Source of the DNA: a virus
Lineage: Duplodnaviria > Caudoviricetes
Length of the DNA stretch: 64,000 nt
Virus record (IMG/VR): IMGVR_UViG_3300043388_000012
Span: 18,210 to 82,209 of that record
Strand: one strand, 5' to 3'
The notes beneath the pieces are model-generated. The model saw nothing but the letters and a program-made list of their open reading frames with translations. It did not search any database and was not told the origin of the DNA. Every line of letters starts with the position of its first letter. The stretch's first letter is position 1. Below, piece after piece: positions 1,957-48,689 of the stretch. A program made the translations under genes and the position numbers.

Positions 1957-1982
1957 GAGCCAGATGCGGGACACATTGTCAA
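1957..1982 (-). promoter_or_regulatory. Leftward promoter with motif-A operator variant
   Basis: Minus strand reads TTGACA-AT-GTGTCCCGCATCTGGCTC: a consensus -35 followed by the same operator used in the 32.6-39.3 kb cassettes. Confidence 0.7.
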
Positions 1983-2030
1983 GCGCGTAAACACGAACGG
2001 ACCCGCTCGTGTTTGTGCTAGACCACCTGC

Positions 2031-2774
2031 ATGCCTCCGCGCAAACAGACCACTGACCCGAGCATCGCGATCGCTTACCTCCGCGTCTCGAGTGACGAGC
2101 AAACCGTTCGGCAGCAACGGGAGGAGATCGAGCGTTGGGCCCGCTCGCAGCGCATCACGATCGCGGAGTGGTTCTCCGATGATGGAGTGAGCGGAGCGGC
2201 GGAGCTCTCCATCGCAAAGCGGCCTGGCATGATGGGAGCCATCGCGGCTCTCAAGACACATCGAGCTGGCTTGCTCGTTGCGTGGAAGCGAGACCGGCTT
2301 GCTCGATGCGTAGCGAGCGCTGCGGCCATCGAGAAGCTCTGCAAGGAGCAAGGCTCGAAGGTCGTAACCGCGGATGGGCTCGATGCGAGTGATACGCCAG
2401 AGGGCATGCTCGTGCGCTCCATGCTGGACGTGATTGCAGCCTACGAGCTGGAGTTGATCCGTGTACGCACGCGCATAGCGATGGCCTCGAAGAAAAAACG
2501 AGGGGAGGCGGTAGGGTCAGCACCCTACGGCTGGAAAAACTTGGGCCGCATCGAAGTGCAGGGGGGTAAGTCGGTCGGAGGTCGCTTGGAAAGGGTGCCA
2601 GAGGAACAGGCCACCATCGCGCGTATACGCCTCCTGCAGGCATCCGGACTCTCGCATAGGGGGATTGCTCTAGCGCTCACGAGAGAGGGCTACAGGGCCC
2701 GTGGGAAGGCTTGGCATGCGACCACAGTACAGCGCGTGTTGAGTGCGCTACGCATGGCCAGAGAGGCGGCTTGA
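2031..2774 (+). CDS. Serine recombinase (resolvase catalytic domain plus short C-terminal recombinase/HTH domain)
   Basis: AYLRVSS (catalytic Ser), FSDDGVSGA, WKRDRLAR, APYGW, and a C-terminal WHATTVQRVL helix. Confidence 0.92.
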   Translation: MPPRKQTTDPSIAIAYLRVSSDEQTVRQQREEIERWARSQRITIAEWFSDDGVSGAAELSIAKRPGMMGAIAALKTHRAGLLVAWKRDRLARCVASAAAIEKLCKEQGSKVVTADGLDASDTPEGMLVRSMLDVIAAYELELIRVRTRIAMASKKKRGEAVGSAPYGWKNLGRIEVQGGKSVGGRLERVPEEQATIARIRLLQASGLSHRGIALALTREGYRARGKAWHATTVQRVLSALRMAREAA

Positions 2775-2793
2775 AAGACTCGGCACGGGGCTG

Positions 2794-2811
2794 TGTATCC
2801 TCGAGGTTACA
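2794..2811. repeat. Motif B copy 1 (TGTATCCTCGAGGTTACA)
   Basis: 18-bp quasi-palindrome that recurs at 6 other sites. Confidence 0.9.
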
Positions 2812-2992
2812 CGGCCGATTTCCCTTGCAGCACACATGTGTCATACAGGTGGGCGCGTGGGGTTTGCGTCCGCACTCTGCCTCACGTCCGGGAGGCCTTA
2901 CCCCTATTCCCCCTCGAAAAATGATCGGGCAACCCAAAGGGCACCCTGGGTTTCAAAAATAAAATTTCGTATACCGCGCACAGCGGTAAGCA

Positions 2993-3484
2993 ATGGGCGG
3001 GGGCATGGCAAGGAAGAGCAAGGCAAGGCGAGAACGGGACTTACTCGGAGTAGTGCATGAGGCGGCGGGTGAGCTCGCGAAGAGACGAGAGCATGATTTG
3101 AGGCTTGCTCTTTTGCCCGACAAGATCGTGGTGCGTGCAGACACGTTCGTCCGCACGATTTGGTTTGTGCAGTTCTCCGAGGAAGCCAACATCCTTGCTT
3201 GGATGTACCGGAGCCCGGGGCAACCTTGGAACATCGCATGGCGCTTCAAGTACCCAGACAGAGCGGCAGAAGTGCATCGGGTTATGGTTAGTGCCGAACC
3301 GCAGGAATACGAGCTAGTCGCGGCCGAAGAGAAGCTCTCCGAGGTCTTCCAAGCTGCTTGCGATGCAGAGACACGAGCAGGGCGGTTTGCCGAGTATGAC
3401 CGGCTCGATATCCAGCTGATTGGGGAGGAAGCCCTTGCTTGCATCGAGGATCAACCGTGGGCCAAGAACCCGATCATTCTGTGA
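2993..3484 (+). CDS. Hypothetical protein
   Basis: First ORF of a long, tightly packed plus-strand operon. Confidence 0.7.
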   Translation: MGGGMARKSKARRERDLLGVVHEAAGELAKRREHDLRLALLPDKIVVRADTFVRTIWFVQFSEEANILAWMYRSPGQPWNIAWRFKYPDRAAEVHRVMVSAEPQEYELVAAEEKLSEVFQAACDAETRAGRFAEYDRLDIQLIGEEALACIEDQPWAKNPIIL

Positions 3485-3664
3485 TTGTCCCCAAAGCGAG
3501 CAGACCTGTTTTGGTCATGCTTTTCCGCTGAGAAAAGTCTTTGGTGCGGGACACGTCCGGCTGTAGAGTTCCGCCAACTCTCGTGCACAAGGTTCTTCCC
3601 GGGACTTGTCTCTCTCTTCATCGTGCACGGGAGTTTTCCTCCCTTCCCCTCGAGGGCCCAACTG

Positions 3665-3979
3665 ATGGACGGTCTACACAAGCTCGATGAACTCTGCACC
3701 GAAGTGCGGGAGGTGACTGAGTCTGACTGCGTTGTCTTGATGGTGATCGTGGGCAATCACATCGGCTACTCGGCGAAGTTTTCATGTGAGCCGCATCTCC
3801 GTACGCAGACGTTGAGCGCGATCGCTTCTCAGTTGCGTCACATCGCAGGTGAAATCGAAGCAGATGCTACCCCGCGACTAGCTTGGGATCAGAGCGATGG
3901 CGTTGTCTGCCCGACGTGCGGTGAGGACTTCACGTTGTGCTCGCACGGCAACGAAATAACTTCGAGGGAACAGTCATGA
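3665..3979 (+). CDS. Hypothetical protein with C-terminal CxxC Zn ribbon
   Basis: CPTCGEDFTLC; ATGA overlap with the next gene. Confidence 0.65.
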   Translation: MDGLHKLDELCTEVREVTESDCVVLMVIVGNHIGYSAKFSCEPHLRTQTLSAIASQLRHIAGEIEADATPRLAWDQSDGVVCPTCGEDFTLCSHGNEITSREQS

Positions 3980-4383
3980 ATGGCGATGTGACTTGGAAGG
4001 TTTGCGATCGATGCGTAGGCAAGCCGGATGCAGAGCATTTCGCTGAGACCCTCGAGGCATGCACTGACCCTGCGATCAAAGAGCTGGCGCAGAGCATTCC
4101 TGCGGTGACTTGTTATTTCGATACGGCAACCGCTGCAGCACGAAGCTTCCACGTCTGGATTACAGGCTATACACACCATGCTGATGGTTCTGTCACCATC
4201 CGCGCGCTCAACGACGGCAATGACGATCTCTTGCCCGGGATCGGTAGTGAGCGAGTTCCGCCGCAGAACTTAGTGCCGTGCGGCTGTGGCAAGTGGGTAT
4301 CTCCAACTCAAGCGCAATGCTTGGAGTCAGGCATAGAAATGCTCGACTTCGTTAGGAGCCGCAGGAGCCGGGGGAAGGCATGA
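3976..4383 (+). CDS. Cys-rich hypothetical protein (paralog of 22115..22654)
   Basis: Shares PGI..L.PCGCG.W..PT..Q with the 22.1 kb ORF. Confidence 0.7.
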   Translation: MNGDVTWKVCDRCVGKPDAEHFAETLEACTDPAIKELAQSIPAVTCYFDTATAAARSFHVWITGYTHHADGSVTIRALNDGNDDLLPGIGSERVPPQNLVPCGCGKWVSPTQAQCLESGIEMLDFVRSRRSRGKA

Positions 4384-4637
4384 CTAACAAGCCGCCGAAG
4401 ATTGAAACCACGCAACAGTACTTCGTTACGAAGGGTTGCTTGCAGGGATTCAAGAACAGTTTGTTAGCACTCGATGGTCTGAACCGACCAGACATGTGGA
4501 AGAAGCTTTATCGAGATGCGTTGCTCTCGATCATCGAAGAGCTCGCCGCCGACGTGAAGGAGTACGAAGACAGCGAGCCGCTGAACGTTCTCCCGTTCGG
4601 ACCAATCGAGATCCCTCCGCATAGGCGCAACCGATGA
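4380..4637 (+). CDS. Hypothetical protein
   Basis: ATGA overlaps on both sides. Confidence 0.65.
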   Translation: MTNKPPKIETTQQYFVTKGCLQGFKNSLLALDGLNRPDMWKKLYRDALLSIIEELAADVKEYEDSEPLNVLPFGPIEIPPHRRNR

Positions 4638-5059
4638 CTAAGGTCAAAGACCTTTGGAACGATGCAGAGGGCACGATCGTCTGGCGCGAAGTCTTCAAGG
4701 ACGAAGAAACGGGTCAGTGGCTCATTTCCGTGAACGTAGGCGGAAGCACGATCGAGCCTCCAGCGTTCAGCATTGCTCGTGCGCTCAAGTCCTATCTTGC
4801 CGAAGACATCCGGACGGAGGCGATCGTTGCCTATCAAGCGATGGCGCGTTGCCTGCACAGGCTAGCTAACAAAGCGATGCTCGAAGCAGAGAAGCTACAA
4901 CCGACTTCGGAGTTCGAGATCCCGATCGAGAAACTCTGCATCGATCTGATGAACGAAAAGGTTGCTGAGATCGCGAAGCACGGCGGCAGAGCTCTCACGA
5001 TCGCCGAAGAGCGACTAGCAGCTCATCTGCGCGCGCGGGGTTGGGGGGAGAAGCTATGA
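4634..5059 (+). CDS. Hypothetical protein
   Basis: ATGA overlaps on both sides. Confidence 0.7.
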   Translation: MTKVKDLWNDAEGTIVWREVFKDEETGQWLISVNVGGSTIEPPAFSIARALKSYLAEDIRTEAIVAYQAMARCLHRLANKAMLEAEKLQPTSEFEIPIEKLCIDLMNEKVAEIAKHGGRALTIAEERLAAHLRARGWGEKL

Positions 5060-5352
5060 CCGTCCGTCAGTACACGCCCGAGGAGAAGGCCCGCTTGGTC
5101 GGTGGGCTGTCGGAGGAAGATTGGAATCGATCTTCGATCGAGTTCGAGCGCGTCGTGAGGTGGTCTTTCGAGAGATTGCCGGTCATGACGCAAGCGGCTG
5201 CGCTGCACGGTCTCCTTTGCGGCAACCAGGAGCTTCAGGATGCGCTCGACACCATCGAGCACGTTTGTAAGCAGCAGCCGGTTCCGATGCAAGCTCCGTG
5301 CCACTCGCTGAGCAAGAAGCTCATCTCCGCAGGTTGGGAAGGATGCGAGTAA
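5056..5352 (+). CDS. Hypothetical protein
   Basis: GGGGGAG RBS and overlap with the upstream stop. Confidence 0.65.
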   Translation: MTVRQYTPEEKARLVGGLSEEDWNRSSIEFERVVRWSFERLPVMTQAAALHGLLCGNQELQDALDTIEHVCKQQPVPMQAPCHSLSKKLISAGWEGCE

Positions 5353-5431
5353 AGGTCGAGCTGGGTATAAACACGATCTGCATCGAGTACTTAGGCGGGC
5401 AACGTTTCATCGAGATTCAGAGGGCTGGCGG

Positions 5432-5722
5432 ATGACAAGCGACGACGACGATCCTGTGATGCGGCGTACTGCGACGGGCTTGCCCGGAGCCGCGTGTTTG
5501 AAGTGCGGAGCTCTGGCTCAGAACGCGGCCAACGCTCTGGGAGACAAGCTGATACATCCGTTCGCTGGCTGCTTCTCGATCTGTGTCATGTGCTTCCATC
5601 CGCAGGCGTTCACGGAGGACCTTACGAAGTTCCGTGAGCTGACTCCCGAAGAAGCCAAGTCGAAGCCACTTCAGCGAGCACTCGACGCGATCAAGCGAGC
5701 ATTCGCGACGAGGCCTAGCTAA
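5432..5722 (+). CDS. Zn-finger hypothetical protein
   Basis: CLKCG...ICVMC; resembles the C-terminus of 25288..26490. Confidence 0.65.
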   Translation: MTSDDDDPVMRRTATGLPGAACLKCGALAQNAANALGDKLIHPFAGCFSICVMCFHPQAFTEDLTKFRELTPEEAKSKPLQRALDAIKRAFATRPS

Positions 5723-5723
5723 A

Positions 5724-5942
5724 ATGCCGCTCGTTATCCCGTTCGTCTGCGATGTGTGCGGAGCGGGTTGCGTTGCCGAACCATGCTCGGGAGAGACGTG
5801 CTTTCTCCCGCATCGTGCGGATGGGCACGTGCACTACAGATGCCCGACCGGAGACGCTCCGCCGTTCGCTGTGACCGTCATCAAGAGCAGGTGGGGCGAT
5901 CACATTCAGATTACTTCGTCGAAGCGAATGGACCAACCATGA
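5724..5942 (+). CDS. Small Cys/His-rich protein
   Basis: CDVCG...C..H...HYRC; fits operon tiling. Confidence 0.55.
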   Translation: MPLVIPFVCDVCGAGCVAEPCSGETCFLPHRADGHVHYRCPTGDAPPFAVTVIKSRWGDHIQITSSKRMDQP

Positions 5943-6109
5943 ACCGGCTACACGCTCTCGTGCACGCGCTCGAATGCACGGCGATCGTCTTGGCTGTGAT
6001 TGCTCCGGTTCGTAGCACGATGCATAAAGTCGCAGCTTGGTTCGCGTTGGGCGTGCTCTGTTTGGTGATCGCGATGGGAGCCGGAGCGGAGCTGTGGAAT
6101 CTGAAATGA
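5939..6109 (+). CDS. Small membrane protein
   Basis: Two hydrophobic stretches; ATGA overlap. Confidence 0.5.
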   Translation: MNRLHALVHALECTAIVLAVIAPVRSTMHKVAAWFALGVLCLVIAMGAGAELWNLK

Positions 6110-6168
6110 GACGACGATCGCAGCTACACGAGCTGTTCATTGTGCTCGTTGGCAAGCGAGGCTAACCG

Positions 6169-10511: not shown

Positions 10512-10730
10512 ATGGAGTTGGTCGAGCGTGCTCGCGTGCGTGCGGATGGCGACAAGCCGACAGGGCATGTTGCATGGTCCGAGTATGCGACCGCGTATAA
10601 CATCCATGTTTGGAGACATGGCCACGTGCTTACAGCTCGCGAGTTCCTAGAGTCAGGCGGCTTCCGATACGGAGAGCTGCTCGACCTGCTCGGCTGTGAG
10701 CCAAAGACTTGGGAGCCTGTGTCGCTCTGA
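10512..10730 (+). CDS. Hypothetical protein
   Basis: TGATG overlap with TerL. Confidence 0.6.
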   Translation: MELVERARVRADGDKPTGHVAWSEYATAYNIHVWRHGHVLTAREFLESGGFRYGELLDLLGCEPKTWEPVSL

Positions 10731-13516
10731 TGCGTTACCGAGTGAAATGGGCGGCGACGATCGCGGCATCCACGCTCGCAGCGTCAACGACGCTAGCTAG
10801 TCCGGGTCATGATGTTCTAGCCAGTGAGGCGGCGAGCGAGAATGTAACCTCGAGGATACAAAAACCGCGGCTCCGAGTGCGTATCGTTCCGCCTCCTGTG
10901 CGGCCGCAGGAGCCGAGCAAGGAACCGAAGCCCCCGTTGCGCCTTGAGACGCCTCCCGGGTTTCCTGAGCCAGCTCCGGAGCCGGATGACGTCGAAGACG
11001 ACGGGGCAACCGATCAAGAGATTCAGATGGCTCTGCTGCACAAGGCGGCGGAGGCGAAGGCCAAGTATCACGAGCTCTGCCGCAACGACATAGACGCCTT
11101 CTGTGAGTACGTACTGAAAGACGTCGACGGCAAGGCGATCGAGCAGAACGCCTTTCACGAGCAGCTTCAGCGCGATCTGACAGTACACAGGCAGATCGTT
11201 GTCATCAGCCATCCTGAGAGCGGGAAGGCGCTGACGCTCGATACAGAGATTCCGACGCCAGACGGCTGGCGGACGATGGGATCGCTGAAGTGCGGCGATC
11301 GTGTGTTCGGAGGCGATGGCAAGCCGTGCTTAGTTACGTTTGCGACGCCTGTGCAGCTGGGTCGACGCGTGTTCGAAGTTGAGTTCGAAGATGGCTCGAT
11401 TCTCAAGGCGGATGCCGATCATCAATGGCATGTTCGCAAGCGGCAGGCGTTCGGCACTCGAGTTGTCACAACGCTCGACATGCAGCGCAAGCTCACGGAG
11501 TCAGACGGTCATTTTGTGTGGTCGGTACCGTGCACTGGAGCAGTGCAGTATGAGCGACACAGGTTGCTTGTTGACCCGTATGTGTTGGGAGCATGGCTCG
11601 GCGACGGCACTGCGAGCGATGCTTCGTTGACGTTCGGCGAGGCGGATAGCTTCGTTTGGGAAGAGTGCGTTGCACGAGTCGGCGGCAGAGCTCCGCGCGT
11701 GGATAGGCACAACGGGCATGTGAAGACCGGGACTCTCGGGTCAGGGTGGGGAGCGATCCGCGGTAGGTTGCGTCGCTTGCGAGTGCTGGATGACAAGCAT
11801 ATCCCGACCAACTATCTGACGGCTTCTGTGTACGATCGACGGGAGCTGCTAGCCGGCCTGCTCGATACTGACGGGAGCGTGAGTCGAGCAGCCGGAGGAA
11901 GCTCACGAGTCGAGCTCACGCTCTGCAACGGCAGGCTCGCGAGTGACTCACTCGAGTTGATTCGGTCGCTGGGTTTCCGCGCAACGATGAAGGAGTCCGA
12001 CTCCTGTTTGAACGGGCGCGTAGTCGGTCGGCGTTGGCGGATCTGTTTCACAGCGCGTGAGCCGGTGTTCCGGTTGCCACGGAAGCTCGCGAAGCAGCAG
12101 CTAGGCGGCTCGACTCGTACGAGTTGGAAGCATGTCGTTGCGATTCGCGAGATCGAGTCGGTCCCGGTTCGCTGCATTGCGGTCGATAGTGAGAACCGAA
12201 CGTATCTCGCTGGCCGGGCGTACACGGTCACGCACAACACCTCTCAGATAGCCGTTGGGCGCGTGTTGTTTGAGCTAGGGCGCAACCCGAACTTGCGCGT
12301 GATGCTGCTCTACAACGCGGAAGAAGCCGCGGTCAACACGCTCTCGACGATCAAGAAGTACATCGAAGACAGCGAAGAGCTGCATGCGGTCTTCCCCAAT
12401 CTCAGACGCGGGCAGATTTGGAAAGATGACGCGATCGTTGTTCAGCGCTCTGCCTACGATCGTAACCCGTCGATCGTTGCAGTCGGTTACAACAGCCGAC
12501 GCATCGGCGGTTCGCGCGTCGACTTCCTAGTCATCGATGACTTGCTCGACCAGACAGTCACGGCGAGCGAGATACAGCGCCGCAAGCTGTCGAGCTGGGT
12601 AAAGAGCACGGTCCTAACGCGTATCACTGCGCACGCAATGATCGCGTTTCTCACGAACGCTTGGCATCCGCGCGACCTCGCACACGAGTCGGTCAAGGAT
12701 CGCGGCTGGCATCTCATCAAGCGGCCGATCCGTAATCCGGATGGCGCGATCTCCTGGCATCTGTGGACTGAAGAGCGGCTCAAGCTCAAGCGCAAGGATC
12801 TCGGAGCTCTCGAGTACGCACGTTCGTTCGAGTGCGATCCGCGCGATGACTCTTCGCGTGTGTTCCGGCCTGAACACGTCGAGTATGCGCAGAAGAAGCG
12901 CGGAGCCGGTTACGGCTTCTTGCACTCGCTCGATATCATGCCCGATCGCTCGCTCGTTGTGACCGGCATCGACTTGGCGGCTGGCGACGACACGAAGAAG
13001 ATCGGTGCTCGCACTGCGATCGTCAGCGTGTTCTTCCATCCCAATCAGGATCGGCAGGTCGTGCGCATCCGCTCCGGTCGTTGGCGCGCGCGGCAGATTT
13101 TGGATGAAGTTGCGGCGGTCGGTCATCTCTTCCCGCGCAACCATTGGATCGTGGTCGAGAACAACGGTGTTCAGCGCTGGATTCTCGACCTGGCTAACGA
13201 GCATGACATGGACGTCGGCGTTGCTCTCGTGCCGTTCCGTACAGGCCGCAACAAGAGTGATCCTCGCTTCGGCGTGGCATCGATGGCGGCCGAGTACGAG
13301 GCTCGCCGTTGGATTTTGCCGGATGCCTGCGAGACCGAAGACGAGCAGAACGAAGTCGAGAGCGTCGTATCGCAGATGATCGATTATGTGCCGGAAGCGC
13401 ATACGGGCGATGCGCTAATGGCGAAGTGGTTCGCGCGCGAAGTCGGCAGGAAGATCTTCATGCGGTTCTTCGGACCCGGAGCTACTGGCGGTTCCATCGT
13501 GCGCGCGATCGGGTAG
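10730..13516 (+). CDS. terL: Terminase large subunit containing an intein
   Basis: Walker A PESGK/TSQ split by the intein; Walker B FLVIDD; nuclease GIDLA, VENNG, HTGDALMA. Start uncertain (10730 or 11027). Confidence 0.93.
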   Translation: MRYRVKWAATIAASTLAASTTLASPGHDVLASEAASENVTSRIQKPRLRVRIVPPPVRPQEPSKEPKPPLRLETPPGFPEPAPEPDDVEDDGATDQEIQMALLHKAAEAKAKYHELCRNDIDAFCEYVLKDVDGKAIEQNAFHEQLQRDLTVHRQIVVISHPESGKALTLDTEIPTPDGWRTMGSLKCGDRVFGGDGKPCLVTFATPVQLGRRVFEVEFEDGSILKADADHQWHVRKRQAFGTRVVTTLDMQRKLTESDGHFVWSVPCTGAVQYERHRLLVDPYVLGAWLGDGTASDASLTFGEADSFVWEECVARVGGRAPRVDRHNGHVKTGTLGSGWGAIRGRLRRLRVLDDKHIPTNYLTASVYDRRELLAGLLDTDGSVSRAAGGSSRVELTLCNGRLASDSLELIRSLGFRATMKESDSCLNGRVVGRRWRICFTAREPVFRLPRKLAKQQLGGSTRTSWKHVVAIREIESVPVRCIAVDSENRTYLAGRAYTVTHNTSQIAVGRVLFELGRNPNLRVMLLYNAEEAAVNTLSTIKKYIEDSEELHAVFPNLRRGQIWKDDAIVVQRSAYDRNPSIVAVGYNSRRIGGSRVDFLVIDDLLDQTVTASEIQRRKLSSWVKSTVLTRITAHAMIAFLTNAWHPRDLAHESVKDRGWHLIKRPIRNPDGAISWHLWTEERLKLKRKDLGALEYARSFECDPRDDSSRVFRPEHVEYAQKKRGAGYGFLHSLDIMPDRSLVVTGIDLAAGDDTKKIGARTAIVSVFFHPNQDRQVVRIRSGRWRARQILDEVAAVGHLFPRNHWIVVENNGVQRWILDLANEHDMDVGVALVPFRTGRNKSDPRFGVASMAAEYEARRWILPDACETEDEQNEVESVVSQMIDYVPEAHTGDALMAKWFAREVGRKIFMRFFGPGATGGSIVRAIG
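10843..10860. repeat. Motif B copy 2 (TGTAACCTCGAGGATACA)
   Basis: Exact reverse complement of copy 1. Confidence 0.9.
11228..12238 (+). mobile_element. Class 3 intein with LAGLIDADG homing endonuclease (337 aa)
   Basis: Starts with Ala (ALTLDTEIPTP), block B ADHQW, block F VRCIAV, ends VTHN with +1 Thr; LGAWLGDG and LAGLLDTDG motifs. Confidence 0.93.
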
Positions 13517-19712: not shown

Positions 19713-20047
19713 TGACCAAGGAAGCGCAGCAAACCGACCCGCTCGACATGACGTTGCGCGAGCTTCTGGCGGCACTCGTTGATCGAGCAGGAGCCAGCGC
19801 GAACGATGAAGAATGGATCAACATCCGCGGAGAGGTTTACCCATGGCGGCGCATCATCGCAGCTGCGGAGCGCGGCGAGTGCGAGGTGAGCCGCGTCGGT
19901 CGGCGGTTGATGATGCGGCGTTCGGAGCTGAGCAAGTTCTTGGCTGCAAGGCGCATCGGTCCGAAGAAGGTTGAACCTAAGACCGATGCGCCTACGAGCG
20001 AGCTAGACAGGTCAGTGCAGCGAGCGCTTCGCCGTAACGGGCTCTAG
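19712..20047 (+). CDS. Excisionase-like winged-helix protein
   Basis: SRVGRRLMMRRSELSKFL wing motif; abuts the integrase 3' end. Confidence 0.6.
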   Translation: MTKEAQQTDPLDMTLRELLAALVDRAGASANDEEWINIRGEVYPWRRIIAAAERGECEVSRVGRRLMMRRSELSKFLAARRIGPKKVEPKTDAPTSELDRSVQRALRRNGL

Positions 20048-21351
20048 TGTTTCGAGAGCCGTGAGACGTTCATGGCGGCGAGCTCTGGGATCGCGAGAGA
20101 GATATCGGGGAACGGACCCGGGTTGAGCTGGAGGTCTTCGAGGCTCCGCGCCGCTCGGACGTAGCGATCCATGATCTCCTTCGTGATGTGACCGGTTCGA
20201 TCTGTGATCCATCCATCGCTTTTGCCAGCTCGCTTAGCCCAAGTGACGAAGGTCGCTCGCAGGTCGTGAAAGCGCAACGCTTGGATCTTGTCTGTGTTGC
20301 TGAAGAGTATCCCTCGAGTGACACCAGCGCAGAGCAGATCCTTGCGAAGGGTCTCGGCTTCGAAGCGGCGTCTGCAGTGCAGTGTGGAGATGACCGGCTT
20401 CGAGTCAGAGGGCCAGCCGCAGTATTCTCGCCATCTACGTAAGAGCTCGATGAGCGAACCGATTCCCGGTGACTCCGCGTCGCGTTGCACGAACATCACG
20501 GGATGATCGTTCTTGTTCACGAGACTCAGGATCGTTGAGTGGGTCAGGTCGATCGAGCTCCAGAGAAAGAACTCGATGCGGCTCTCTTCGTCGGCGGTAG
20601 CACGCGATCGGTTGCCGATTGGGATCGAGCCTTTGCGCAGACCCGTGTACGTAGCTAGCGCGTAGTACACGCGGCGTTCGATCGGGATGGCGATGCACAT
20701 CAAGAGAGCAAGGAGCTCGACCGGGTAAAGGTAGCTGTAGAGCTTTGACGGGCCTTTGCTCGGGAGCAGGTCATCGCTGACAGGGTTGTCTTCGCGAAGC
20801 CGACCGGGGCGGATGGCAAGGTCGAAGAGCCGATGCGTGACCATGTACACTTGCCGCTTCGTGCCTTGCTTCGGGTTCTTCTTGTATCGACGCTTGTAGG
20901 CGACCCATGCAGCTGCGAAGGCTCGCTCGACGTCCTGCTCAGTGACCGCGGAGACCGCCATGTCTCCGAGGTATGGGTACACGTGTTGTTCGAGGCGACG
21001 CACGTCATCTTCGGCAGACTTCTTGATCTTGAGTCGTTTCACTTCGCCGTATTTTTGATGCAGCTTGCCCGACGTCCATTCCTCTCCGAATGCTCTGACC
21101 TTCTTTTCAGCTCGGAGCCGTTCGGGCATCTCTGCTGCGGGGTTTCGAAATGCAGTCGAGAACTTTTTCGCCGCAGCTTGAGCGGCATCCTTGTCTGCTT
21201 CCTTGTTCGTGTAGAGAGGTCGACCATCGTCGGCAAGCATCTCTTCGCGGATGCGGCTTCCGCGAACGCTGATCTTCGCAACGTAGCGGCCGCCCTTCGT
21301 AGGCAACCACTCGGCAGAGCCTGTCGCTGGCTTGGTTTCGCTTGGTTTCAT
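20044..21351 (-). CDS. int: Tyrosine recombinase (phage integrase)
   Basis: TYTGLRKG (R), FHDLRATF (HxxR), GHITKEIMDRY (H, Y); next to attP. Confidence 0.95.
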   Translation of the reverse strand: MKPSETKPATGSAEWLPTKGGRYVAKISVRGSRIREEMLADDGRPLYTNKEADKDAAQAAAKKFSTAFRNPAAEMPERLRAEKKVRAFGEEWTSGKLHQKYGEVKRLKIKKSAEDDVRRLEQHVYPYLGDMAVSAVTEQDVERAFAAAWVAYKRRYKKNPKQGTKRQVYMVTHRLFDLAIRPGRLREDNPVSDDLLPSKGPSKLYSYLYPVELLALLMCIAIPIERRVYYALATYTGLRKGSIPIGNRSRATADEESRIEFFLWSSIDLTHSTILSLVNKNDHPVMFVQRDAESPGIGSLIELLRRWREYCGWPSDSKPVISTLHCRRRFEAETLRKDLLCAGVTRGILFSNTDKIQALRFHDLRATFVTWAKRAGKSDGWITDRTGHITKEIMDRYVRAARSLEDLQLNPGPFPDISLAIPELAAMNVSRLSKH

Positions 21352-21372
21352 GCGCTTTGCTGCTTCCCGTGG

Positions 21373-21420
21373 GGAGAATCGTCCAGACAGCTCGGAGAAT
21401 CGTCCATGCAACTGTCCAGA
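21373..21420 (+). repeat. Integrase arm-type sites, left
   Basis: GGAGAATCGTCCA at 21373 and 21394, plus degenerate ACTGTCCAGA at 21411. Confidence 0.75.
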
Positions 21421-38764: not shown

Positions 38765-38857
38765 AATCCTAAGGGATGACGGGGGGAGCAGGACGGCTCC
38801 CCCAGAATCGGCATTGCTCGGCTTGCATATCTGTCCCCCATGCGGGATAGTTACTGC

Positions 38858-39283
38858 ATGGACAGCAACGCAGTACTGGTTGATGTGACTCGGTTCATGT
38901 ACGCGGGAAACGCGAGTTTCACCGTAGTTTCCAACGCGACGGGCGTGCGCTTCACGTTCAAGGTTCGCGCCAAGGAAGTCGAAGGCGGCGCCACGCTTCA
39001 CTTTGTGTCGGTCCTGACAGGCTCCGATAACGAGAGCGATTACACGTTCCTCGGAACCATCTTCAACCGCACGAGCTTCCGGCATGGCGCGCGATCGAGC
39101 ATCGGAGTGGCAGCGCCATCGGCGAAGGCCTTTGCATGGTTCTTCCGCAATGTTGCAGGCGGTAAGCTGCAAGGCGCGACAGTGCATCACGAAGGCCGCT
39201 GCGGCCGCTGCGGCCGGAAGCTGACGGTTCCTGAGTCGATCCTGACCGGGCTAGGGCCCGAGTGCGCTGGTAAGGCGGCCTGA
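38858..39283 (+). CDS. Cassette R8: DUF6011-like protein (leaderless)
   Basis: C-terminal CGRCGRKLTVPESILTGLGPECA; ATG 6 nt after GATAGT; hairpin near 39298-39321. Confidence 0.8.
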   Translation: MDSNAVLVDVTRFMYAGNASFTVVSNATGVRFTFKVRAKEVEGGATLHFVSVLTGSDNESDYTFLGTIFNRTSFRHGARSSIGVAAPSAKAFAWFFRNVAGGKLQGATVHHEGRCGRCGRKLTVPESILTGLGPECAGKAA

Positions 39284-40186: not shown

Positions 40187-40489
40187 ATGCGGCTTGAATC
40201 GTATCCACTCAACATTAAAGCGACAGCTGGCAACGGAACGTCGCAGCTAGTTCGCGACTTGCGTGAGAAATACGTTCAGATCGGCGGCGGAGCGTTCACA
40301 GGCTCGTTGCAAGTCGAAGTGAGCTTGAACGGCGGCACTGACTATTTCGCGTCGGGCGCTGCGATCACTGCTCCGATCGTGTTCAGCATCCCAGAGCCTG
40401 CGACGCATATCCGCATCGTTACCGGCTCGCTCTCGCTAGGTGCCCCGACCGCCTGTGTCAACGGCTACAACACCCGAACAGAGGGCTGA
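40187..40489 (+). CDS. Small beta-rich virion-associated protein
   Basis: TGATG coupling to portal. Confidence 0.6.
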   Translation: MRLESYPLNIKATAGNGTSQLVRDLREKYVQIGGGAFTGSLQVEVSLNGGTDYFASGAAITAPIVFSIPEPATHIRIVTGSLSLGAPTACVNGYNTRTEG

Positions 40490-42456
40490 TGGGAGCGGAC
40501 GGCGAACAGTCTGCGGAGCAGCACATCGACGCTTCGCTACCGCGGGAGGTCATCGTCAAGGCATACGCGATCGGCAACGATCGGGTGAGCCTCGAGAAGG
40601 CAGATCAACAGTCAACGACTGACTCGATCTCGACCTTGTTCGGCGATGCGGCGATGAAGATCGATGCGATCGATCCTCCGTATGACCCGGAGCGGTTGTG
40701 TCGTGTGTACGAATACTCGAGTCTGTTGCGTCAGAACGTCGACGCTTACAAAACGAACATCGACGGCTTCGGCCATGTGTTCGAGCCTGTGATTCAGCTC
40801 AAGGAAGCGGGAGCTCGCGACCTGGTCTCTGACGCGATCGAACTTGAGCGCGCTGAGAAAGCGAATACGGGCGCAGAAGGCGGGTTCGCCGAGTTTCAGC
40901 CGGTGACTCCAGATGACATCACTAAGAAGATCGAGGCGCTCAAGTACCTAATGCGCCTCGAAGAAGCTCGTATCAAGAGCTTCTTCCAATCGTGCGTTGC
41001 AGAAGAAAGCTTCACTTCACTTCGTCGTAAAACTCGAGAAGACATCGAGGTCACAGGTAACGGTTACTGGGAAGTGCTCCGCAACGATGCTGGCGGGATT
41101 TCGCAGTTCGTACACATGCCAGCTCGCTCGGTTCGAGTCACGAAGAACAAGGGCAACCCGGCTACCGTCTCGCAGCAGGTTCGTACAGGTCTCTTCACGT
41201 TCCGAACCGAGACCTATCGGCGGAAGTTTCGACGCTACGTGCAGACGAGCGGCGATGATTCGCGCTACTTCAAAGAGTTCGGAGACCCTGCAGTCGTATC
41301 GAGCAAGTCAGGCCGTGAGTTCGCAACACTCGAAGAACTGCAGGCCGCAGAAGAAGGCGTCGACGCTGCAAACGAGGTCTTTCACTTCAAGATTCACAGC
41401 GTGAAGAGTGGCGCCTATGGCGTGCCTCGTTGGATCGGCAACCTGCTAAGTGTGCTCGGCTCTCGCAGTGCCGAAGAAGTGAATCTCGCGTACTTCAACA
41501 ACAAGAGTGTGCCTCCGATGGCCATTCTCGTCTCAGGCGGTAGGCTCGGCGAAGAGTCGGTCAAGCGCATCGAAGACTTCGTTGAGACGAAGCTCAAAGG
41601 CGCGAACAACTTTCATAAAATCCTCGTGATCGAGGCGGAGACTACAGCCGGCTCGCTCGGTATGGCAGAGAACACTGGGAGCATGCGCGTCGAGATCAAG
41701 ACACTGACCGACGCGCAACTCAAAGATGGTTTGTTTCTGCAGTATGACGCGGCGAACATGGATAAGGTCGGCATGGGCTTTCGCCTGCCGCGCTTGCTCC
41801 GCGGCGACATCCGAGACTTCAACCGCGCATCCGCGGAAGCCGCGCTCGACTTCGCTGAGTCACAAGTCTTCGTGCCTGAACGCAACGACTTCGACTTCGC
41901 TATGAACCGGTTCATTCTGCCCTGCTTCGGGATCAAATATTGGACGTTCAAGTCCAATGGCCCGCGGCTCTCTGATGCGCAGAGTTGGGGTGAGATGATC
42001 ACGAAGCTCACGACCGCGGGCATCCTCACTCCCGAAGACGCCCGTGAACTCGTAGGCAAGAAGGTGCTCGCCTCCGAGCTGGCGGTCATCGATGCCGATT
42101 GGGTCAAGCAGCCACTCGCTCTGACCATCGCTGGCATCCAAGCCGACACAGTTCTCGATGGTGAGATCCCGATGATCGATGCAGCCGGTTCGGTTGCTGG
42201 CGGAGTGTCGGCAGATCCGAACGTCGGCATATCGATCGGCGATCCGAGCCTCGCGATGAAGGCGAAGTCGATTCTCGCTCGCAAGGCGAAGTCGCTCCTG
42301 AAGCTCCGCGATGCCTTCATGAAGGAAGAAGCGACTGCAGCCGTCGCATCGTACAAGCGCGAACGTGCAGCCGAGCAGGCGGCGAGCGGAGAGCTCGTGA
42401 TCAAGATGTCTGCGGCTGACATCGCATCTCAGCTCGGTATCACGAAGGTCTCGTAA
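40489..42456 (+). CDS. Portal protein (PBSX-like)
   Basis: PPYDP...LRQNVDA...IDGFG, YGVPRW, YFNNKSVPPMAILVSGG; position in the head module. Confidence 0.9.
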   Translation: MGADGEQSAEQHIDASLPREVIVKAYAIGNDRVSLEKADQQSTTDSISTLFGDAAMKIDAIDPPYDPERLCRVYEYSSLLRQNVDAYKTNIDGFGHVFEPVIQLKEAGARDLVSDAIELERAEKANTGAEGGFAEFQPVTPDDITKKIEALKYLMRLEEARIKSFFQSCVAEESFTSLRRKTREDIEVTGNGYWEVLRNDAGGISQFVHMPARSVRVTKNKGNPATVSQQVRTGLFTFRTETYRRKFRRYVQTSGDDSRYFKEFGDPAVVSSKSGREFATLEELQAAEEGVDAANEVFHFKIHSVKSGAYGVPRWIGNLLSVLGSRSAEEVNLAYFNNKSVPPMAILVSGGRLGEESVKRIEDFVETKLKGANNFHKILVIEAETTAGSLGMAENTGSMRVEIKTLTDAQLKDGLFLQYDAANMDKVGMGFRLPRLLRGDIRDFNRASAEAALDFAESQVFVPERNDFDFAMNRFILPCFGIKYWTFKSNGPRLSDAQSWGEMITKLTTAGILTPEDARELVGKKVLASELAVIDADWVKQPLALTIAGIQADTVLDGEIPMIDAAGSVAGGVSADPNVGISIGDPSLAMKAKSILARKAKSLLKLRDAFMKEEATAAVASYKRERAAEQAASGELVIKMSAADIASQLGITKVS

Positions 42457-44564
42457 TGCGCCGGGCGGTCACGCTCGCAGACGGCATCGTAGCGGCCGAA
42501 GAACTCGCTTCGGCGTTGCTCGGCTTCTCGGTCCACAAGGCAGTCGACCCCCTCTCTCCGAGTGGGTTTCTGCTCATCGGGCAGAAGGTAGCTAAGCAAC
42601 TCGAGAACGCGGTCAAAGGCGCAGAAGCGGCAGCTGTCGCGGATGTGATTCACAAGCTCGGCTTCGATTGGACGAAGCTCTCCCCCGATGCGGCAACCGC
42701 TGCGATGAACGCCGTAAACAAGGCGATCGGCGATGCCTACGCGAAGCACATCCTACCGAAAATCAACGAGACGCTAGAGGTCGAAGGCCCGAAGGTGATG
42801 GGCGCGACGAAGAAGTCGGTCAAGGTACACCAGAAGATCGAGATCTCCGGAGACCTTGCACAGCGTGATCTCGTCGCAGAAAAGGCGATCCGCAACTCAC
42901 ACGTGAACTTCATCCGAGACTCAGCCGGAGACCGCGCGGCTACGCTCTCGAAGAAGGCTCGTTCGATGGTCGCTACTGGTCTCGGGCAGGGGCTAGGCAC
43001 AGACCAGATCGGGAAGGACTTGCATGCATTCTTCCGGGAGAACATCCCGCGACCGCCGTCTTACTGGCGCACGGTCGCTGATTCGTTCGTCGGCAGGGCC
43101 CGAGCTTCTTCGCAGATCTACGCATACGAGACCGCGAAGATTCAGAGCTTCGAAGTCGTCGCTGTCATCGATGAAGTGACTACAGACCAATGTCGATTCA
43201 TGAACGGCAAAGTCTTCTCGGTCACGGTTGGGCGAGCGCTCGTAGAGACGATGAACGCGCTCGAAGAGCCGGAGGATGTGAAGTATGCCGCTCCGTGGAT
43301 TCGTAAGGGCAGAGACGATGCAGGCAACATGCGGCTCTTCGTGCCGCACTCGAACGGCACAACGACAACCATCGCGAAGATCGATCGTAGCGGCGTAGGG
43401 CGCGCCGACGATGCAGGCAAGTTCAGCGGCGGCAAGGATGCAGACGGGCTAGGCAAGCTTGGCGTCTCGTTGCCGCCCTACCATGGCCGATGCCGCACGG
43501 TGATCGTTGCTGCGGCGGAGACGTTCGAGCAAGGCGCTCCGGTGATGGTACCGGGAGCTGACCTAGAGCCGACTCCTGCTGCAGAGCCGGTAGCAACTCA
43601 TTCGGCGGAGCCGGAGACTCTGGAGGTCAACCAACCAGCTGCTTGGATGACGGCAGAGACTCTCGACGTCACAGAAGAGATCGCTCTAAAAGGCAGTGCT
43701 ACCGATGTTCGTCGGCTCGTTGTTCAGGACGGCGAAGCCAAACACAAAGCTATTTGGAAGTCCGTTACAGGAGAGTTCCGACACGAAAACGAGTGGGGCA
43801 GACCTCTGCGAGATGGTGTCAAAGCAGGCACTTTCTATCAGCGCGAAGCAGCTGCGTTCGACTTTGACTCCCTGCTTGGCGGAGAGACGGTCATCCCTAT
43901 GACCGTTGCTCGCAACCGAGGAACTATGCCGGGAAGCTTGCAGGCGTTCGTACCGAAGTCGAAGACGACTAACCTGACTGATTGGAAGGCTGATGGAGGG
44001 GGCACTGTTGCGTATACTCCTGACGATAAGCTAGCCCTCAAGCTCGCCGCAGACCCTGACGTTCGTCGACAGTTTCTGCTCGATGCGCTGATGGCAAACG
44101 ATGACCGGCATGGAGCGAATACCCTCTGGCGAAAAGTCGGCGATGCGATGAAGCCGGTCGCGATCGACAACGGGTTAGCGTTTCCCGAGAAGCCTTGCCG
44201 CTTCTTGTTCGCGATTGAGAATCGAGGATTTGAGCAAGCCCTCCTGCGGCTCGATGCACACAGCATCGAGTTACTCAACAAGTTGAGCCTCGAAGACGTC
44301 GCAGCCGTTCTCAAAAAGTACGAAGGGATTACAGAAACCCAGATCAGCGCCACGCTTGGTCGAATCAAGGCACTGCAGAAGGATCCTCAACAACTACATA
44401 AGGGTATGACCGAACACGAAGCCCCCGCACAGGTCATGAGCATGTGGTTGAAAATGACACTCGAAGATCGTGCTATAACGAAAGGACCGATCGGCGATTA
44501 CAGCGCATGGGCTGTTCTCTCCGCGGATGACCTGGCAGAGATTGCGAAGCTGTCCAAGCGATGA
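42456..44564 (+). CDS. MuF/SPP1 gp7-like head morphogenesis protein fused to a PI3/4-kinase-like domain
   Basis: AVIDEVTTDQCR and LPPYHGRCRT MuF motifs; C-terminal WKSV..E, REAAA, NDDRHGAN, AIDNGLAF kinase motifs. Confidence 0.85.
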   Translation: MRRAVTLADGIVAAEELASALLGFSVHKAVDPLSPSGFLLIGQKVAKQLENAVKGAEAAAVADVIHKLGFDWTKLSPDAATAAMNAVNKAIGDAYAKHILPKINETLEVEGPKVMGATKKSVKVHQKIEISGDLAQRDLVAEKAIRNSHVNFIRDSAGDRAATLSKKARSMVATGLGQGLGTDQIGKDLHAFFRENIPRPPSYWRTVADSFVGRARASSQIYAYETAKIQSFEVVAVIDEVTTDQCRFMNGKVFSVTVGRALVETMNALEEPEDVKYAAPWIRKGRDDAGNMRLFVPHSNGTTTTIAKIDRSGVGRADDAGKFSGGKDADGLGKLGVSLPPYHGRCRTVIVAAAETFEQGAPVMVPGADLEPTPAAEPVATHSAEPETLEVNQPAAWMTAETLDVTEEIALKGSATDVRRLVVQDGEAKHKAIWKSVTGEFRHENEWGRPLRDGVKAGTFYQREAAAFDFDSLLGGETVIPMTVARNRGTMPGSLQAFVPKSKTTNLTDWKADGGGTVAYTPDDKLALKLAADPDVRRQFLLDALMANDDRHGANTLWRKVGDAMKPVAIDNGLAFPEKPCRFLFAIENRGFEQALLRLDAHSIELLNKLSLEDVAAVLKKYEGITETQISATLGRIKALQKDPQQLHKGMTEHEAPAQVMSMWLKMTLEDRAITKGPIGDYSAWAVLSADDLAEIAKLSKR

Positions 44565-44815
44565 AGCGCCTAGTGCAAGTTGATCCAGAGACGTACAAAC
44601 CCGCGGGAGTGGTCTGCACGTTCGAGCTTGTCGGAGACAAGGTCGAAGTAGTCCCTGCGGATGGTCTCGACCGATGGCGGAACGTCGCAGAGCTCGTGTT
44701 GGGGAGCGAGATCCTGACTCCGAGCGACGGCAAGGCGTATTACGATGCTCTCGGATCGATTCGCGGCTCCTATTTTTTCGTCGAAGAAGTTCCGGAGACC
44801 GAAGCAACCAAGTAG
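44561..44815 (+). CDS. Small protein coupled to MuF-kinase (candidate immunity)
   Basis: 84 aa with ATGA overlap. Confidence 0.6.
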   Translation: MKRLVQVDPETYKPAGVVCTFELVGDKVEVVPADGLDRWRNVAELVLGSEILTPSDGKAYYDALGSIRGSYFFVEEVPETEATK

Positions 44816-44827
44816 TTTCTCCCTGCT

Positions 44828-45118
44828 ATGGCAGGCGAACTACTCGAGTTGATCACGAGTCACGATCCGTCGCTCAAGCAGCGCGTGTTGACACGCGTGC
44901 AGCACGTTATCGCTGACTCGTTTAGAGCAGACAAGTCACGCCGCACAACCTCCGAGGTAGTGCGGCGGTTCAAGATCCTCGAGACCTTGATGCGAGAGCT
45001 CCGGCATGACTACGGATGGGCGTTCGAACGGATTCTCGACGCTATGCCTGTAGCGCTCCGATGCAAGCTCGACGGCATCCCGTGGGCGCCCGATTTGAAG
45101 CGCAACTCTTGGGTGTAA
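44828..45118 (+). CDS. Hypothetical protein
   Basis: 96-aa ORF; its stop lies inside motif B copy 6. Confidence 0.6.
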   Translation: MAGELLELITSHDPSLKQRVLTRVQHVIADSFRADKSRRTTSEVVRRFKILETLMRELRHDYGWAFERILDAMPVALRCKLDGIPWAPDLKRNSWV

Positions 45119-45131
45119 CCTCGAGGATACA
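45114..45131. repeat. Motif B copy 6
   Basis: TGTAACCTCGAGGATACA upstream of the head-assembly genes. Confidence 0.9.
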
Positions 45132-45200
45132 ATCTGGAGCTGCACGGCTTATTGCGATCTGTATGTTGGCCAGCGTCTACTTTGGGCAACAGGAGATCCG

Positions 45201-45953
45201 ATGCCAACTCTTACCGAACAAGTCGATGCAGCGAACGCGAAGCTCGATGCGCTTCTAGCCGCTCCGGCTACCGTCGTTGCTCCGACTGCCGAACCGGTCG
45301 AGATGACCGCGGCCGAAGCTCTGCTTCACATCACTGACGAACTGTCCAAGGGTGTTTCGACAGAGCGAGCAACCTATCTCAAGGGCATCGTGACTGAGAT
45401 CGCGAAGAACAACTTCGAGTCCCATGGCGAAGGCGCCATGCCGATCAAAATCGTCAACGACCCGACGCAACTCAAGCCGGGCACGGCTCCGATCGCTCCG
45501 GTTCAGTCTCTGACGTCAGCGACTCCGGAGAGCAACTTCGCAGACAACATGAGCGCGGTTCAGAAGGTCGCTCTCATCGTGAAGATGCTCACTGACAAGG
45601 AAGAGCTCAAGGCTCGGATCGCGAAGTCAGCGCTCACTGAAAAGATGGCTCAGATCAAGTCGATGTTCGGTCTGACCGATACCGACATGAAAGACAGCTA
45701 CGACGTTCGTTGGAAGGTCGGAGACCTGATCTCTCTGCTGCAGGAAGCGATCAAGATGGAGAACTTCGTTAGCGGAGGCGGCGGCAAAGACGACTCGACC
45801 TCGAAGGCAGAGCCTGTCGCGACTCCCGCGGCTCCGCCTGCTTCACTCGCGAGCACGCCAGCTGCTCCCGACGTTTGGCCGCGCGACATGGCGATCGCGA
45901 AGTTCGACCCGGTCAAGAAGGCATACGAGCCTGAACCCAACGTGTGGAAGTGA
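45201..45953 (+). CDS. Head-region hypothetical protein (scaffold-like)
   Basis: AGGAG RBS; helical with Pro/Ala linkers. Confidence 0.6.
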   Translation: MPTLTEQVDAANAKLDALLAAPATVVAPTAEPVEMTAAEALLHITDELSKGVSTERATYLKGIVTEIAKNNFESHGEGAMPIKIVNDPTQLKPGTAPIAPVQSLTSATPESNFADNMSAVQKVALIVKMLTDKEELKARIAKSALTEKMAQIKSMFGLTDTDMKDSYDVRWKVGDLISLLQEAIKMENFVSGGGGKDDSTSKAEPVATPAAPPASLASTPAAPDVWPRDMAIAKFDPVKKAYEPEPNVWK

Positions 45954-46705
45954 CGGGAGGCGCGTTGGAAGACGAAACGTTTAGGAGCGCGATTGCAGGG
46001 GCTATCGCGCTCGTGCCGGAAGGCGGCTCGACCGTAGTCATCGAAGCCGGTGACACGTTCGATCTCGATCTGACCGTAGCGAAGGCGGATGAGATTACGA
46101 CGGCCTGGATTATCGAGATCCCTGCAGTCGGAGCCATGTTCGAACTGCTCGCGAAGCGCTCCGGTGTGTCTGTCTTTTACGTCGACGAGATCCCGGGCAG
46201 TCTGTTCGCGACCACTGAGAAGCTCGCAGCCGGGAAGAGTCGAGTGCTCGTTGCAGATGGGCAGATCGGGGTGCCTGCGCATGACTTCATTCCACCCGAA
46301 GCACCGTCATCGATCGGCAAGCGCGTAACGAAGGTGTTGAAGACTGCAGAGGAACGATACGTGCTCGGTATCGTGCTCGTGCCGGAAACGGTCGACTCGC
46401 AGGGCGATATCTATTCACACGATGAAGTCCGCAAGTCAGCCCATATGTACATGGAGACCGCGGGCAATCTCGGCAAGCAGCACACTGAGATCGTCACAGG
46501 CAAGCTCAAGATCCTCGAGACCTATCTCGCTCCAGCTGACTTCACGATGGACGAAGAGAAGATCACTAAGGGAACGTGGTTGATGGGAATCAGAGTGGTC
46601 GATGATGGCCTGTGGGATGACGTCAAGAAGGGCTCATTCTCAGGCTTCTCAATCGGCGGCGCAGCACACCGAACGCCCGAGATCACTACGACCGATAAGG
46701 TCTGA
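45944..46705 (+). CDS. XkdF-like prohead serine protease
   Basis: GIVLVPETVDSQGD...KQH...ETYLAP...GTWLMG...VKKGSFSGFSIGG. Confidence 0.88.
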   Translation: MEVTGGALEDETFRSAIAGAIALVPEGGSTVVIEAGDTFDLDLTVAKADEITTAWIIEIPAVGAMFELLAKRSGVSVFYVDEIPGSLFATTEKLAAGKSRVLVADGQIGVPAHDFIPPEAPSSIGKRVTKVLKTAEERYVLGIVLVPETVDSQGDIYSHDEVRKSAHMYMETAGNLGKQHTEIVTGKLKILETYLAPADFTMDEEKITKGTWLMGIRVVDDGLWDDVKKGSFSGFSIGGAAHRTPEITTTDKV

Positions 46706-48652: not shown

Positions 48653-48689
48653 TACTCACCTCGAACAACAGGAACAGGAGACAAGCACA

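Follow-up and report, generated by a model that had tools for sequence, protein, structure and literature searches.

An uncultured phage represented by IMG/VR record IMGVR_UViG_3300043388_000012 (Duplodnaviria; Caudoviricetes) carries in its head module a gene that joins a MuF head protein to an intact kinase resembling the type II phosphatidylinositol 4-kinases (PI4KII), and overlapping its 3' end an 84-amino-acid gene, here denoted the partner, whose product is predicted to be a cognate inhibitor of the kinase. The window analysed here is a stretch of 64,000 nucleotides, positions 18,210 to 82,209 of the record; the record is a single contig of 82,209 bp and the window is its final 64 kb. 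Coordinates are those of the window, on the + strand unless stated otherwise. The reading we favour, with a probability of about 0.6, is that the fusion protein acts as an effector or toxin kinase borne in the capsid and held in check by a cognate inhibitor; it would represent a C-terminal type new to the MuF polymorphic toxins. This reading builds on the domain identities, the catalytic residue set, the linkage of the two genes and their joint exchange between phages, all of which we observed, and on the position of the partner in the catalytic cleft, which was modelled. Beyond these we infer packaging, ejection, toxicity, inhibition and the nature of the substrate.

The MuF head protein is fused to an intact type II PI 4-kinase-like domain

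The fusion gene (42456..44564) encodes 702 amino acids and is defined by its open reading frame (ORF), by domain matches and by five full-length relatives. It lies directly downstream of the portal gene in the head module, where the portal stop codon overlaps the start of the fusion gene at 42456 in a TAATG junction. Residues 1-348 (42456..43499) form a MuF domain of the SPP1 gp7-type minor head protein class. The TIGR01641 profile matches residues 173-256 with 42.5 bits, above its curated cutoff of 39.65, and phrog_13868 matches residues 8-352 with an E-value of 8.6e-50, in addition to minor head protein PHROGs at E 2e-6. An initial annotation, made from the DNA letters without database searches, had placed the end of the MuF domain at the motif LPPYHGRCRT, about 43470-43500. 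We located this motif at residues 339-348 (43470..43499), where it closes the domain. A linker rich in Pro, Ala and Glu follows (residues 349-394, 43500..43637), recognised from its sequence and containing, at about 43574, the left edge of the exchanged cassette described below.

The remainder of the protein, residues 395-702 (43638..44561), is a type II PI4K-like kinase domain, as assigned from TIGR03843, PF00454, the AlphaFold2 fold and invariant residues. The catalytic positions are K435 (43758..43760) within WKSV (residues 434-437), E464 (43845..43847) within REAAA (463-467), the catalytic loop DRHGAN (550-555, 44103..44120) and the metal site IDNG (570-573, 44163..44174). In an alignment of 127 relatives K435, E464, P481, D550, R551, H552, N555 and D571 are invariant, and because the catalytic residues are invariant in this set, the motifs are not a chance occurrence. 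Moreover, in nearly every cluster of the family DRHxxN is followed about 20 residues later by IDNG or IDHG. The AlphaFold2 model of the domain, with a predicted local distance difference test score (pLDDT) of 94.8 and a predicted template modelling score of 0.92, places K435 in the third beta strand of the N-lobe and E464 in the helix after it. The initial annotation had listed the beta3 Lys, the helix-C Glu, DRHGAN and IDNG as apparently intact; all four were confirmed, with the N-lobe placement modelled. The domain is therefore an intact type II PI4K-like kinase, and its fusion to MuF, claimed in the same annotation, is backed by profiles, fold and conservation.

The structural neighbours of the domain are headed by lipid kinases. 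Human type II PI 4-kinases alpha and beta stand at the top of the Foldseek list (E 4.8e-8), and VIA-align superposes PI4KII alpha and beta with Z 19.4-20.4 and a root-mean-square deviation of 3.6-4.3 over 251-260 residues at 18-21% identity. The next tier consists of Fam20 (Z 14.6) and CtkA (Z 14.2), followed by VPS34, mTOR, ATM and HipA at about 11. The family profile also matches PI4K2A by sequence alone, with E 1.4e-14. The profile is required for this: a single-sequence phmmer search of the kinase domain against PDB sequences returned only a chance acetyltransferase match.

The initial annotation had described the domain as PI3/4-kinase-like of the HipA/SCO1664 type. The PI4-kinase likeness, here specifically to type II, and the relation to SCO1664 hold, whereas the HipA assignment does not. 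TIGR03843 (SCO1664 family) matches with 50.7 bits (E 1.5e-13) over profile positions 6-236 of 253. Judged by this profile score the domain is a relative of the SCO1664 family and not a member, because 50.7 bits are far under the equivalog cutoff of 172.4. Membership in HipA was rejected: neither HipA_C nor HipA_2 matches the window protein at E<=1, and HipA structures reach Z 10.9-11.3 against 19.4-20.4 for PI4KII. Among 76 representative relatives, each of the two HipA profiles weakly matches just one.

A small partner gene accompanies the kinase

The ATG of the partner gene (44561..44815) overlaps the stop codon of the kinase gene, the two genes sharing 4 nucleotides in an ATGA junction. Its identification as a predicted cognate inhibitor gene draws on homologues beside the kinase in 29 loci and on the complex model given below. 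All five close full-length relatives of the fusion are followed by a gene of 80-88 amino acids with the same 4-nucleotide overlap with the kinase stop codon, and the products are 38-59% identical. With a partner hidden Markov model (HMM) iterated on the fetched loci, a partner homologue was found immediately beside the kinase in 25 IMG/VR loci, which with L001-L004 makes 29, mostly with the 4-nucleotide overlap. The linkage extends to loci whose kinases are only about 28-45% identical. The initial annotation had called the small gene coupled to the MuF-kinase gene, which the overlap, the neighbouring homologues and the inclusion of the gene in the exchanged cassette all bear out.

Linkage is also retained when the surroundings change. 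Two of the loci, L003 and L004, have a portal of another family (PF06381) and a MuF region that cannot be aligned with that of the window, and the partner still adjoins the kinase. Because these loci differ in both portal family and MuF region, the kinase-partner pair moves independently of the backbone. In the locus of a PT-HINT protein (P0014) the partner homologue lies just upstream of the gene for the kinase protein. In L035 the partner gene is inverted (5897..6151 of that locus, minus strand) yet adjacent, the two stop codons sharing the palindrome CTAG; here the linkage persists without translational coupling. Four close loci gave no partner match: two of them end at the kinase ORF, one ends 48 nucleotides past it, and in the fourth, L057, no kinase ORF carrying the catalytic motif was found. 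At the 13 most distant kinase loci the partner HMM detected no partner homologue.

The AlphaFold2 model of the partner (pLDDT 90.5) is a small beta-rich domain. Searches with the partner returned no Pfam, PHROG or NCBIfam match, no Foldseek match in the PDB and nothing usable in the ESM Atlas, and its comparison with PDB sequences gave only chance nanobody matches. The top VIA-align matches are weak: HipS ranks first and second (7vkb_B, Z 3.5; 7ab3_B, Z 3.3) and the N-subdomain 1 of HipA ranks sixth (5k98_A, residues 3-109, Z 3.0), and Z values of 3.0-3.5 are below the reliable level and insufficient for homology. The C-terminal loop of the partner has the consensus G-S-Y/S at positions 69-71. 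Of 30 homologues, 27 have Ser or Thr at position 70, and 29 have Tyr, Ser or Thr at position 71.

Kinase and partner are exchanged together between related phages

Comparison of the window with a sister phage, L001, revealed that the kinase and most of the partner have been replaced on a nearly identical backbone. By blastn the two DNAs are 92.8% identical over 38005-43573 and 92.6% identical over 44760-49999. Within the intervening 43574..44759, which starts late in the linker, spans the kinase domain and stops after codon 66 of the partner, only a stretch at 44070..44387 around the catalytic loop can be aligned, at 69% identity. The proteins follow the same pattern. The kinase is 55% and the partner 59% identical to the L001 counterparts, as against 97% for the portal, 98-100% for the MuF part (up to about residue 360), 96% for the products of both a 96-amino-acid and a 250-amino-acid gene, 98% for the protease and 99% for the capsid protein.

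A second, unrelated pair of phages (L034 and L036) shows a similar break, which runs from inside the MuF-kinase gene to about 70 nucleotides before the end of the partner gene, between flanks that are 83-84% identical. In both pairs the right breakpoint lies just before the conserved C-terminal motif of the partner, and the conserved 3' stretch of the partner may serve as a recombination anchor. Mosaicism of this kind is the hallmark that defines polymorphic toxin-immunity cassettes. A mirror-tree analysis added nothing beyond these discrete swaps, as the correlation of kinase with partner identities (r 0.68) was not above that of kinase with MuF identities (r 0.67).

The partner is modelled in the catalytic cleft of the kinase

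Binding is supported by prediction of the kinase-partner complex, which gave an interface score (ipSAE) of 0.83, compared with 0.01 for the best of three controls. This mark is reached by 58 of 80 solved complexes and by 2 of 110 mismatched pairs. The runs share at least 87% of their contacts, and the pLDDT of the partner is at least 86. On the side of the kinase, the modelled contacts comprise K55, D170, H172, N175 and D191 of the domain, which are K435, D550, H552, N555 and D571 of the full protein, together with the first strands of the N-lobe and the segment after D571. As the contacts cover the N-lobe strands, K435, the catalytic loop and D571, the model places the partner inside the catalytic cleft. 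On the side of the partner, contacts are made by a variable stretch (residues 38-49) and by the conserved C-terminal loop (residues 68-75). In the model this loop looks like a pseudosubstrate plug.

The kinase domain belongs to a large family with other toxin-like architectures

A search of 1.84 billion representative proteins recovered 396 representative clusters at E<=1e-3, 81 of them at E<=1e-10. Most members are 500-900 amino acids long with the kinase match at the C-terminus, and the members seen here come only from metagenomic sequences. A Pfam scan of the 76 representative relatives (E<=0.001) detected PF00454 in 53, with a best E-value of 2.3e-17, and the MuF profile PF04233 in at least 33; the latter count is a lower bound, the window protein itself failing both profiles at that threshold. 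The MuF-kinase fusion is thus not a one-off.

The kinase domain is also joined to other domains. Outside the MuF context, in the protein P0014, a PT-HINT pre-toxin domain (PF07591, E 1.2e-25, residues 295-425) stands directly before a kinase domain that is 41% identical to that of the window; PT-HINT is a hallmark of classical polymorphic toxins (PMC3482391). An ADP-ribosyltransferase toxin domain shares the polypeptide with the kinase in two relatives and a methyltransferase domain does so in one. In two further members, P0006 (L003 938..3355) and P0007 (L004 3388..5814), both downstream of a portal gene of the Phage_portal_3 type, a P-loop nucleoside triphosphatase domain with a GxxGxGKT-type motif precedes MuF, and Pfam AAA_18 is found in two family members. 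The protein P0008 was considered as a stand-alone kinase of 308 amino acids and rejected, as its 2.5-kb contig starts 140 nucleotides upstream and the gene call is possibly truncated.

Some further arrangements were noticed in passing. Among P0016, P0034, P0042 and P0102 we observed an ADP-ribosyltransferase exotoxin domain before or after the kinase, a methyltransferase, or an intein-like HINT insertion right after the MuF motif. L068 carries at 213..5774 a tandem array of three consecutive ORFs (780, 507 and 545 amino acids), each with the DRHxxN...IDNG kinase motif. No partner homologue was detected at this array of PI4K-like kinases.

Proposed mechanism and alternative explanations

SPP1 gp7 and MuF toxins are believed to be packaged in the head and to exit together with the DNA (PMC5512222, PMC5576092), and for MuF toxins immunity proteins are known that are encoded downstream and work through protein-protein interaction (PMC5576092, PMC12226406). 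If the MuF-kinase protein behaves like SPP1 gp7 and the MuF polymorphic toxins, a few copies of it would be packaged next to the portal and would exit the capsid along with the DNA. In a freshly infected cell, or in one without the partner, the kinase would then phosphorylate a host target. In the producing cell the 84-amino-acid protein, made from the overlapping downstream gene, would bind the catalytic cleft and keep the kinase off. The partner would in this way be a safety catch of the producer cell and possibly an immunity factor as well, comparable to HipS blocking HipT, and the two proteins would evolve and recombine as one cognate cassette on near-identical backbones. With regard to the substrate, a lipid is suggested by the fold, and a protein by the next-nearest folds and the pseudosubstrate-like loop. 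The S78-type head protease encoded downstream could cleave the Pro/Ala/Glu linker of the fusion protein. A wider proposal, which we put forward tentatively and at slightly less than even odds, is that the whole family consists of capsid-carried polymorphic kinase toxins or effectors sharing ancestry with the eukaryotic type II PI 4-kinases, each with a plug protein of a new fold family, the pairs being shuffled between backbones with breakpoints in the MuF linker or MuF-kinase gene and near the 3' end of the partner.

Several observations weigh against a capsid-borne toxin kinase with its own inhibitor. Both Pfam profiles fall below their gathering scores on the window protein, PF00454 with 19.1 bits against 27.1 (E 0.0013) and PF04233 with 18.1 against 29.6 (E 0.0048). 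A tblastn search with the full protein and three members of the kinase family against 50,697 phage records gave no match to the kinase domain, and no cultured phage was found to have it. The solved kinases nearest to the domain act on lipids, and no lipid target is evident in bacteria. A temperate lifestyle, typical of MuF toxins, is supported here by one integrase homologue only. No sigma-70-like promoter was found in 42000..45400, and because no promoter-like site precedes the partner gene, the partner is apparently made only together with the late head genes, which appears to suit a producer-cell safety catch better than immunity of a lysogen. Finally, going by the model, a partner seated in the cleft could equally be a true substrate, given the hydroxyl residues at positions 70 and 71.

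The last point leads to the possibility that the small protein is a substrate, an activator or a folding or packaging chaperone of the kinase and not its inhibitor, for instance co-packaged with it and phosphorylated on its Ser/Thr-Tyr loop. The loop at positions 69-71 carries hydroxyl residues in nearly all of the 30 homologues and is modelled against D191 (domain numbering), the Mg-binding Asp, and the gene, besides being translationally coupled, lacks a promoter-like site of its own. We nevertheless consider this explanation unlikely: kinase and partner are swapped jointly as divergent cognate pairs, as expected of specific inhibitors and unneeded for a generic substrate, the partner accompanies the kinase in the PT-HINT pre-toxin context too, and the modelled partner covers the nucleotide-binding strands besides the catalytic loop. 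Still less probable, in our estimate, is a kinase that, instead of being injected, acts during head assembly, in the producing cell or the procapsid, on phage proteins such as scaffold, portal or capsid. Near-identical head genes tolerate kinases that are just 55% identical, cultured relatives with similar portals have a short MuF and no kinase, and a structural role would need no cognate blocker of the active site; furthermore, the same domain is fused to the pre-toxin HINT domain outside the MuF context and to ADP-ribosyltransferase toxin domains. Such a role would fit the association of MuF/gp7 proteins with assembly and the place of the fusion gene, co-oriented between the portal gene and the protease and scaffold genes.

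A different question is what the kinase phosphorylates. Its target might not be a protein but a lipid or small molecule, so that at entry it would act on the envelope or a metabolite, for instance a membrane lipid or cell-wall precursor, either aiding DNA entry or poisoning the cell. This concerns the substrate only and is compatible with a toxin-immunity pair; we find it doubtful, although it deserves more weight than the two explanations above. To our knowledge, phosphatidylinositol is not a general bacterial lipid, which we count against it. The next-nearest folds, CtkA, Fam20C and HipA, are protein kinases, and the modelled partner holds a Ser/Thr loop against the active site much as a pseudosubstrate would. 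On the other hand, the type II PI 4-kinases are by a wide margin the nearest solved structures, and fusion to MuF has been reported for a zeta-toxin-like kinase whose substrate is a cell-wall precursor sugar (PMC5512222).

Relation to known systems

MuF-fused toxins are a recognised route by which phages deliver enzymes, and the catalogue so far has no kinases of this type. The initial annotation had listed nucleases, peptidases, ADP-ribosyltransferases and RelA-like domains as MuF C-terminal types, in agreement with Jamet et al. 2017, who name nucleases, metallopeptidases, ADP-ribosyltransferases and RelA-like domains; the word 'kinase' is absent from their main text, and many proteobacterial MuF extensions in that study have no known domain (PMC5576092). 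The only kinase listed by Zhang et al. 2012 is a peptide kinase of the lantibiotic-synthetase type. In Iyer et al. 2017 the kinases are of two kinds, a C-terminally truncated Ser/Thr/Tyr clade and a zeta-toxin-like kinase joined to MuF, and PI3K, PI4K and HipA go unmentioned (PMC5512222). Full-text literature searches with the Pfam name and phage, with SCO1664, and with PI4K and MuF returned nothing relevant, and we found no published description of such a fusion.

The locus shares most of its plan with the MuF polymorphic toxins (Jamet et al. 2017, PMC5576092; Apk2 toxins, PMC12226406): a MuF N-terminus beside the portal gene, a variable enzymatic C-terminal domain after a linker, a small gene directly downstream (there for an immunity protein), cassette-like replacement, and reuse of the C-terminal domain in pre-toxins, here with PT-HINT. 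It differs from those described in that the C-terminal domain is a PI4KII-like kinase and the partner family has no Pfam or PDB relative; within the known scheme of MuF toxins and effectors, the type of C-terminal domain and the partner family are what is new. It also resembles the polyvalent and MuF- or portal-fused effectors of Iyer et al. 2017 (PMC5512222), both in the fusion of an enzyme effector to MuF, with the concept of delivery along with the DNA, and in that some kinase relatives share a polypeptide with an ADP-ribosyltransferase or methyltransferase domain.

With PI4K2A and PI4K2B (PDB 4hne, 4pla, 4wtv, 9hhm) the phage domain has in common the two-lobe fold, the catalytic Lys, the D-R-x-x-x-N loop and the I-D-N-G metal site. 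At about 300 amino acids it is much smaller, lacks insertions that show as gaps when it is aligned with PI4K2A, and has DRHxxN in place of the DRGNDN of PI4K2A. Unlike the eukaryotic PI4KII it forms part of a head protein and has a small companion protein modelled in its cleft, and a lipid would be only its putative substrate. Among NCBIfam profiles that of the SCO1664 family of Actinobacteria fits best, over almost its full length, and Nocardia and Pseudonocardia, which belong to the same group, have distant relatives of the kinase, but SCO1664 proteins are encoded by stand-alone chromosomal genes, whereas the phage kinase is part of a head protein. The closest mechanistic precedent is HipS, residues of which enter the active site of the HipT kinase and thereby neutralise it (PMC10627512). 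HipBST and HipBA (PMC10627512, PMC9325769, PMC6581861) likewise combine a kinase-like toxin with an active-site neutraliser, of about 100 amino acids there and, as modelled, an 84-amino-acid cleft partner here. They differ from the phage pair in that the phage kinase is nearer to PI4KII (Z 20 versus 11.3) and has no HipA_C match, and no HipB-like DNA-binding component is present.

If the favoured reading is true, phosphorylation would be added to the activities that a phage can deliver before any gene expression, and kinase and partner would form a new toxin-immunity pair useful for studies of host takeover or counter-defence. Should the wider proposal hold, no earlier case of a kinase delivered by virions together with its own immunity protein would exist, and the family would be a prokaryotic or viral sister group bearing on the origin of type II PI4Ks. 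The domain would offer a compact bacterial or viral relative of the type II PI 4-kinases for structural and evolutionary work, and a functional result on one member would annotate many genes across the 396 clusters.

Genomic context of the head module

The head module runs on the + strand in the order portal, MuF-kinase, 84-amino-acid gene, two small to medium-sized genes, S78-type protease, scaffold-like gene and capsid. The portal gene (40489..42456) is supported by PF04860 (E 2.6e-17) and phrog_12 (E 4.5e-38), and the head maturation protease gene (45944..46705) by PF14550 Peptidase_S78_2 (E 2.7e-29). The two genes between the partner and the protease have no family match. Elsewhere the record encodes a DNA polymerase, a UvsX-like recombinase, an SbcC-like nuclease, a large terminase and an integrase homologue. 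The last, of 455 amino acids (20044..21411, - strand), matches phrog_1 (E 1.8e-25) and falls below the cutoff of the Pfam Phage_integrase profile.

Judged by the portal, where identity is at most 34%, the nearest cultured phages have a short MuF and lack the kinase, Rhizobium phage L338C being an example. In the tblastn search mentioned above, only weak matches to the MuF part were obtained, in Stenotrophomonas and Aeromonas phages. Stenotrophomonas phages Summit and DLP_5 are 25% identical to residues 225-393 (43128..43634) of the 702-amino-acid protein. Their matching gene carries the name ParB-like nuclease domain protein, an annotation that seems to cover a MuF-containing fusion. A profile scan of genome contigs found only distant relatives of the kinase, from actinobacteria (including Nocardia and Pseudonocardia), chlamydiae and others, and no close prophage. 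The host of the phage appears to be a non-Firmicute, a further difference from the described MuF polymorphic toxins.

Two further features of the window were noted. The large terminase gene (10709..13516, 935 amino acids; phrog_38, E 5.7e-42) lies about 27 kb upstream of the portal gene and does not adjoin it. Residues 365-439 of the terminase match the homing-endonuclease/LAGLIDADG profiles PF05204 and PF14528 with E about 4e-5, and this is probably an intein. A gene for a DUF6011 protein (38840..39283, E 3.5e-14) occupies the same position upstream of the portal in related phage loci.

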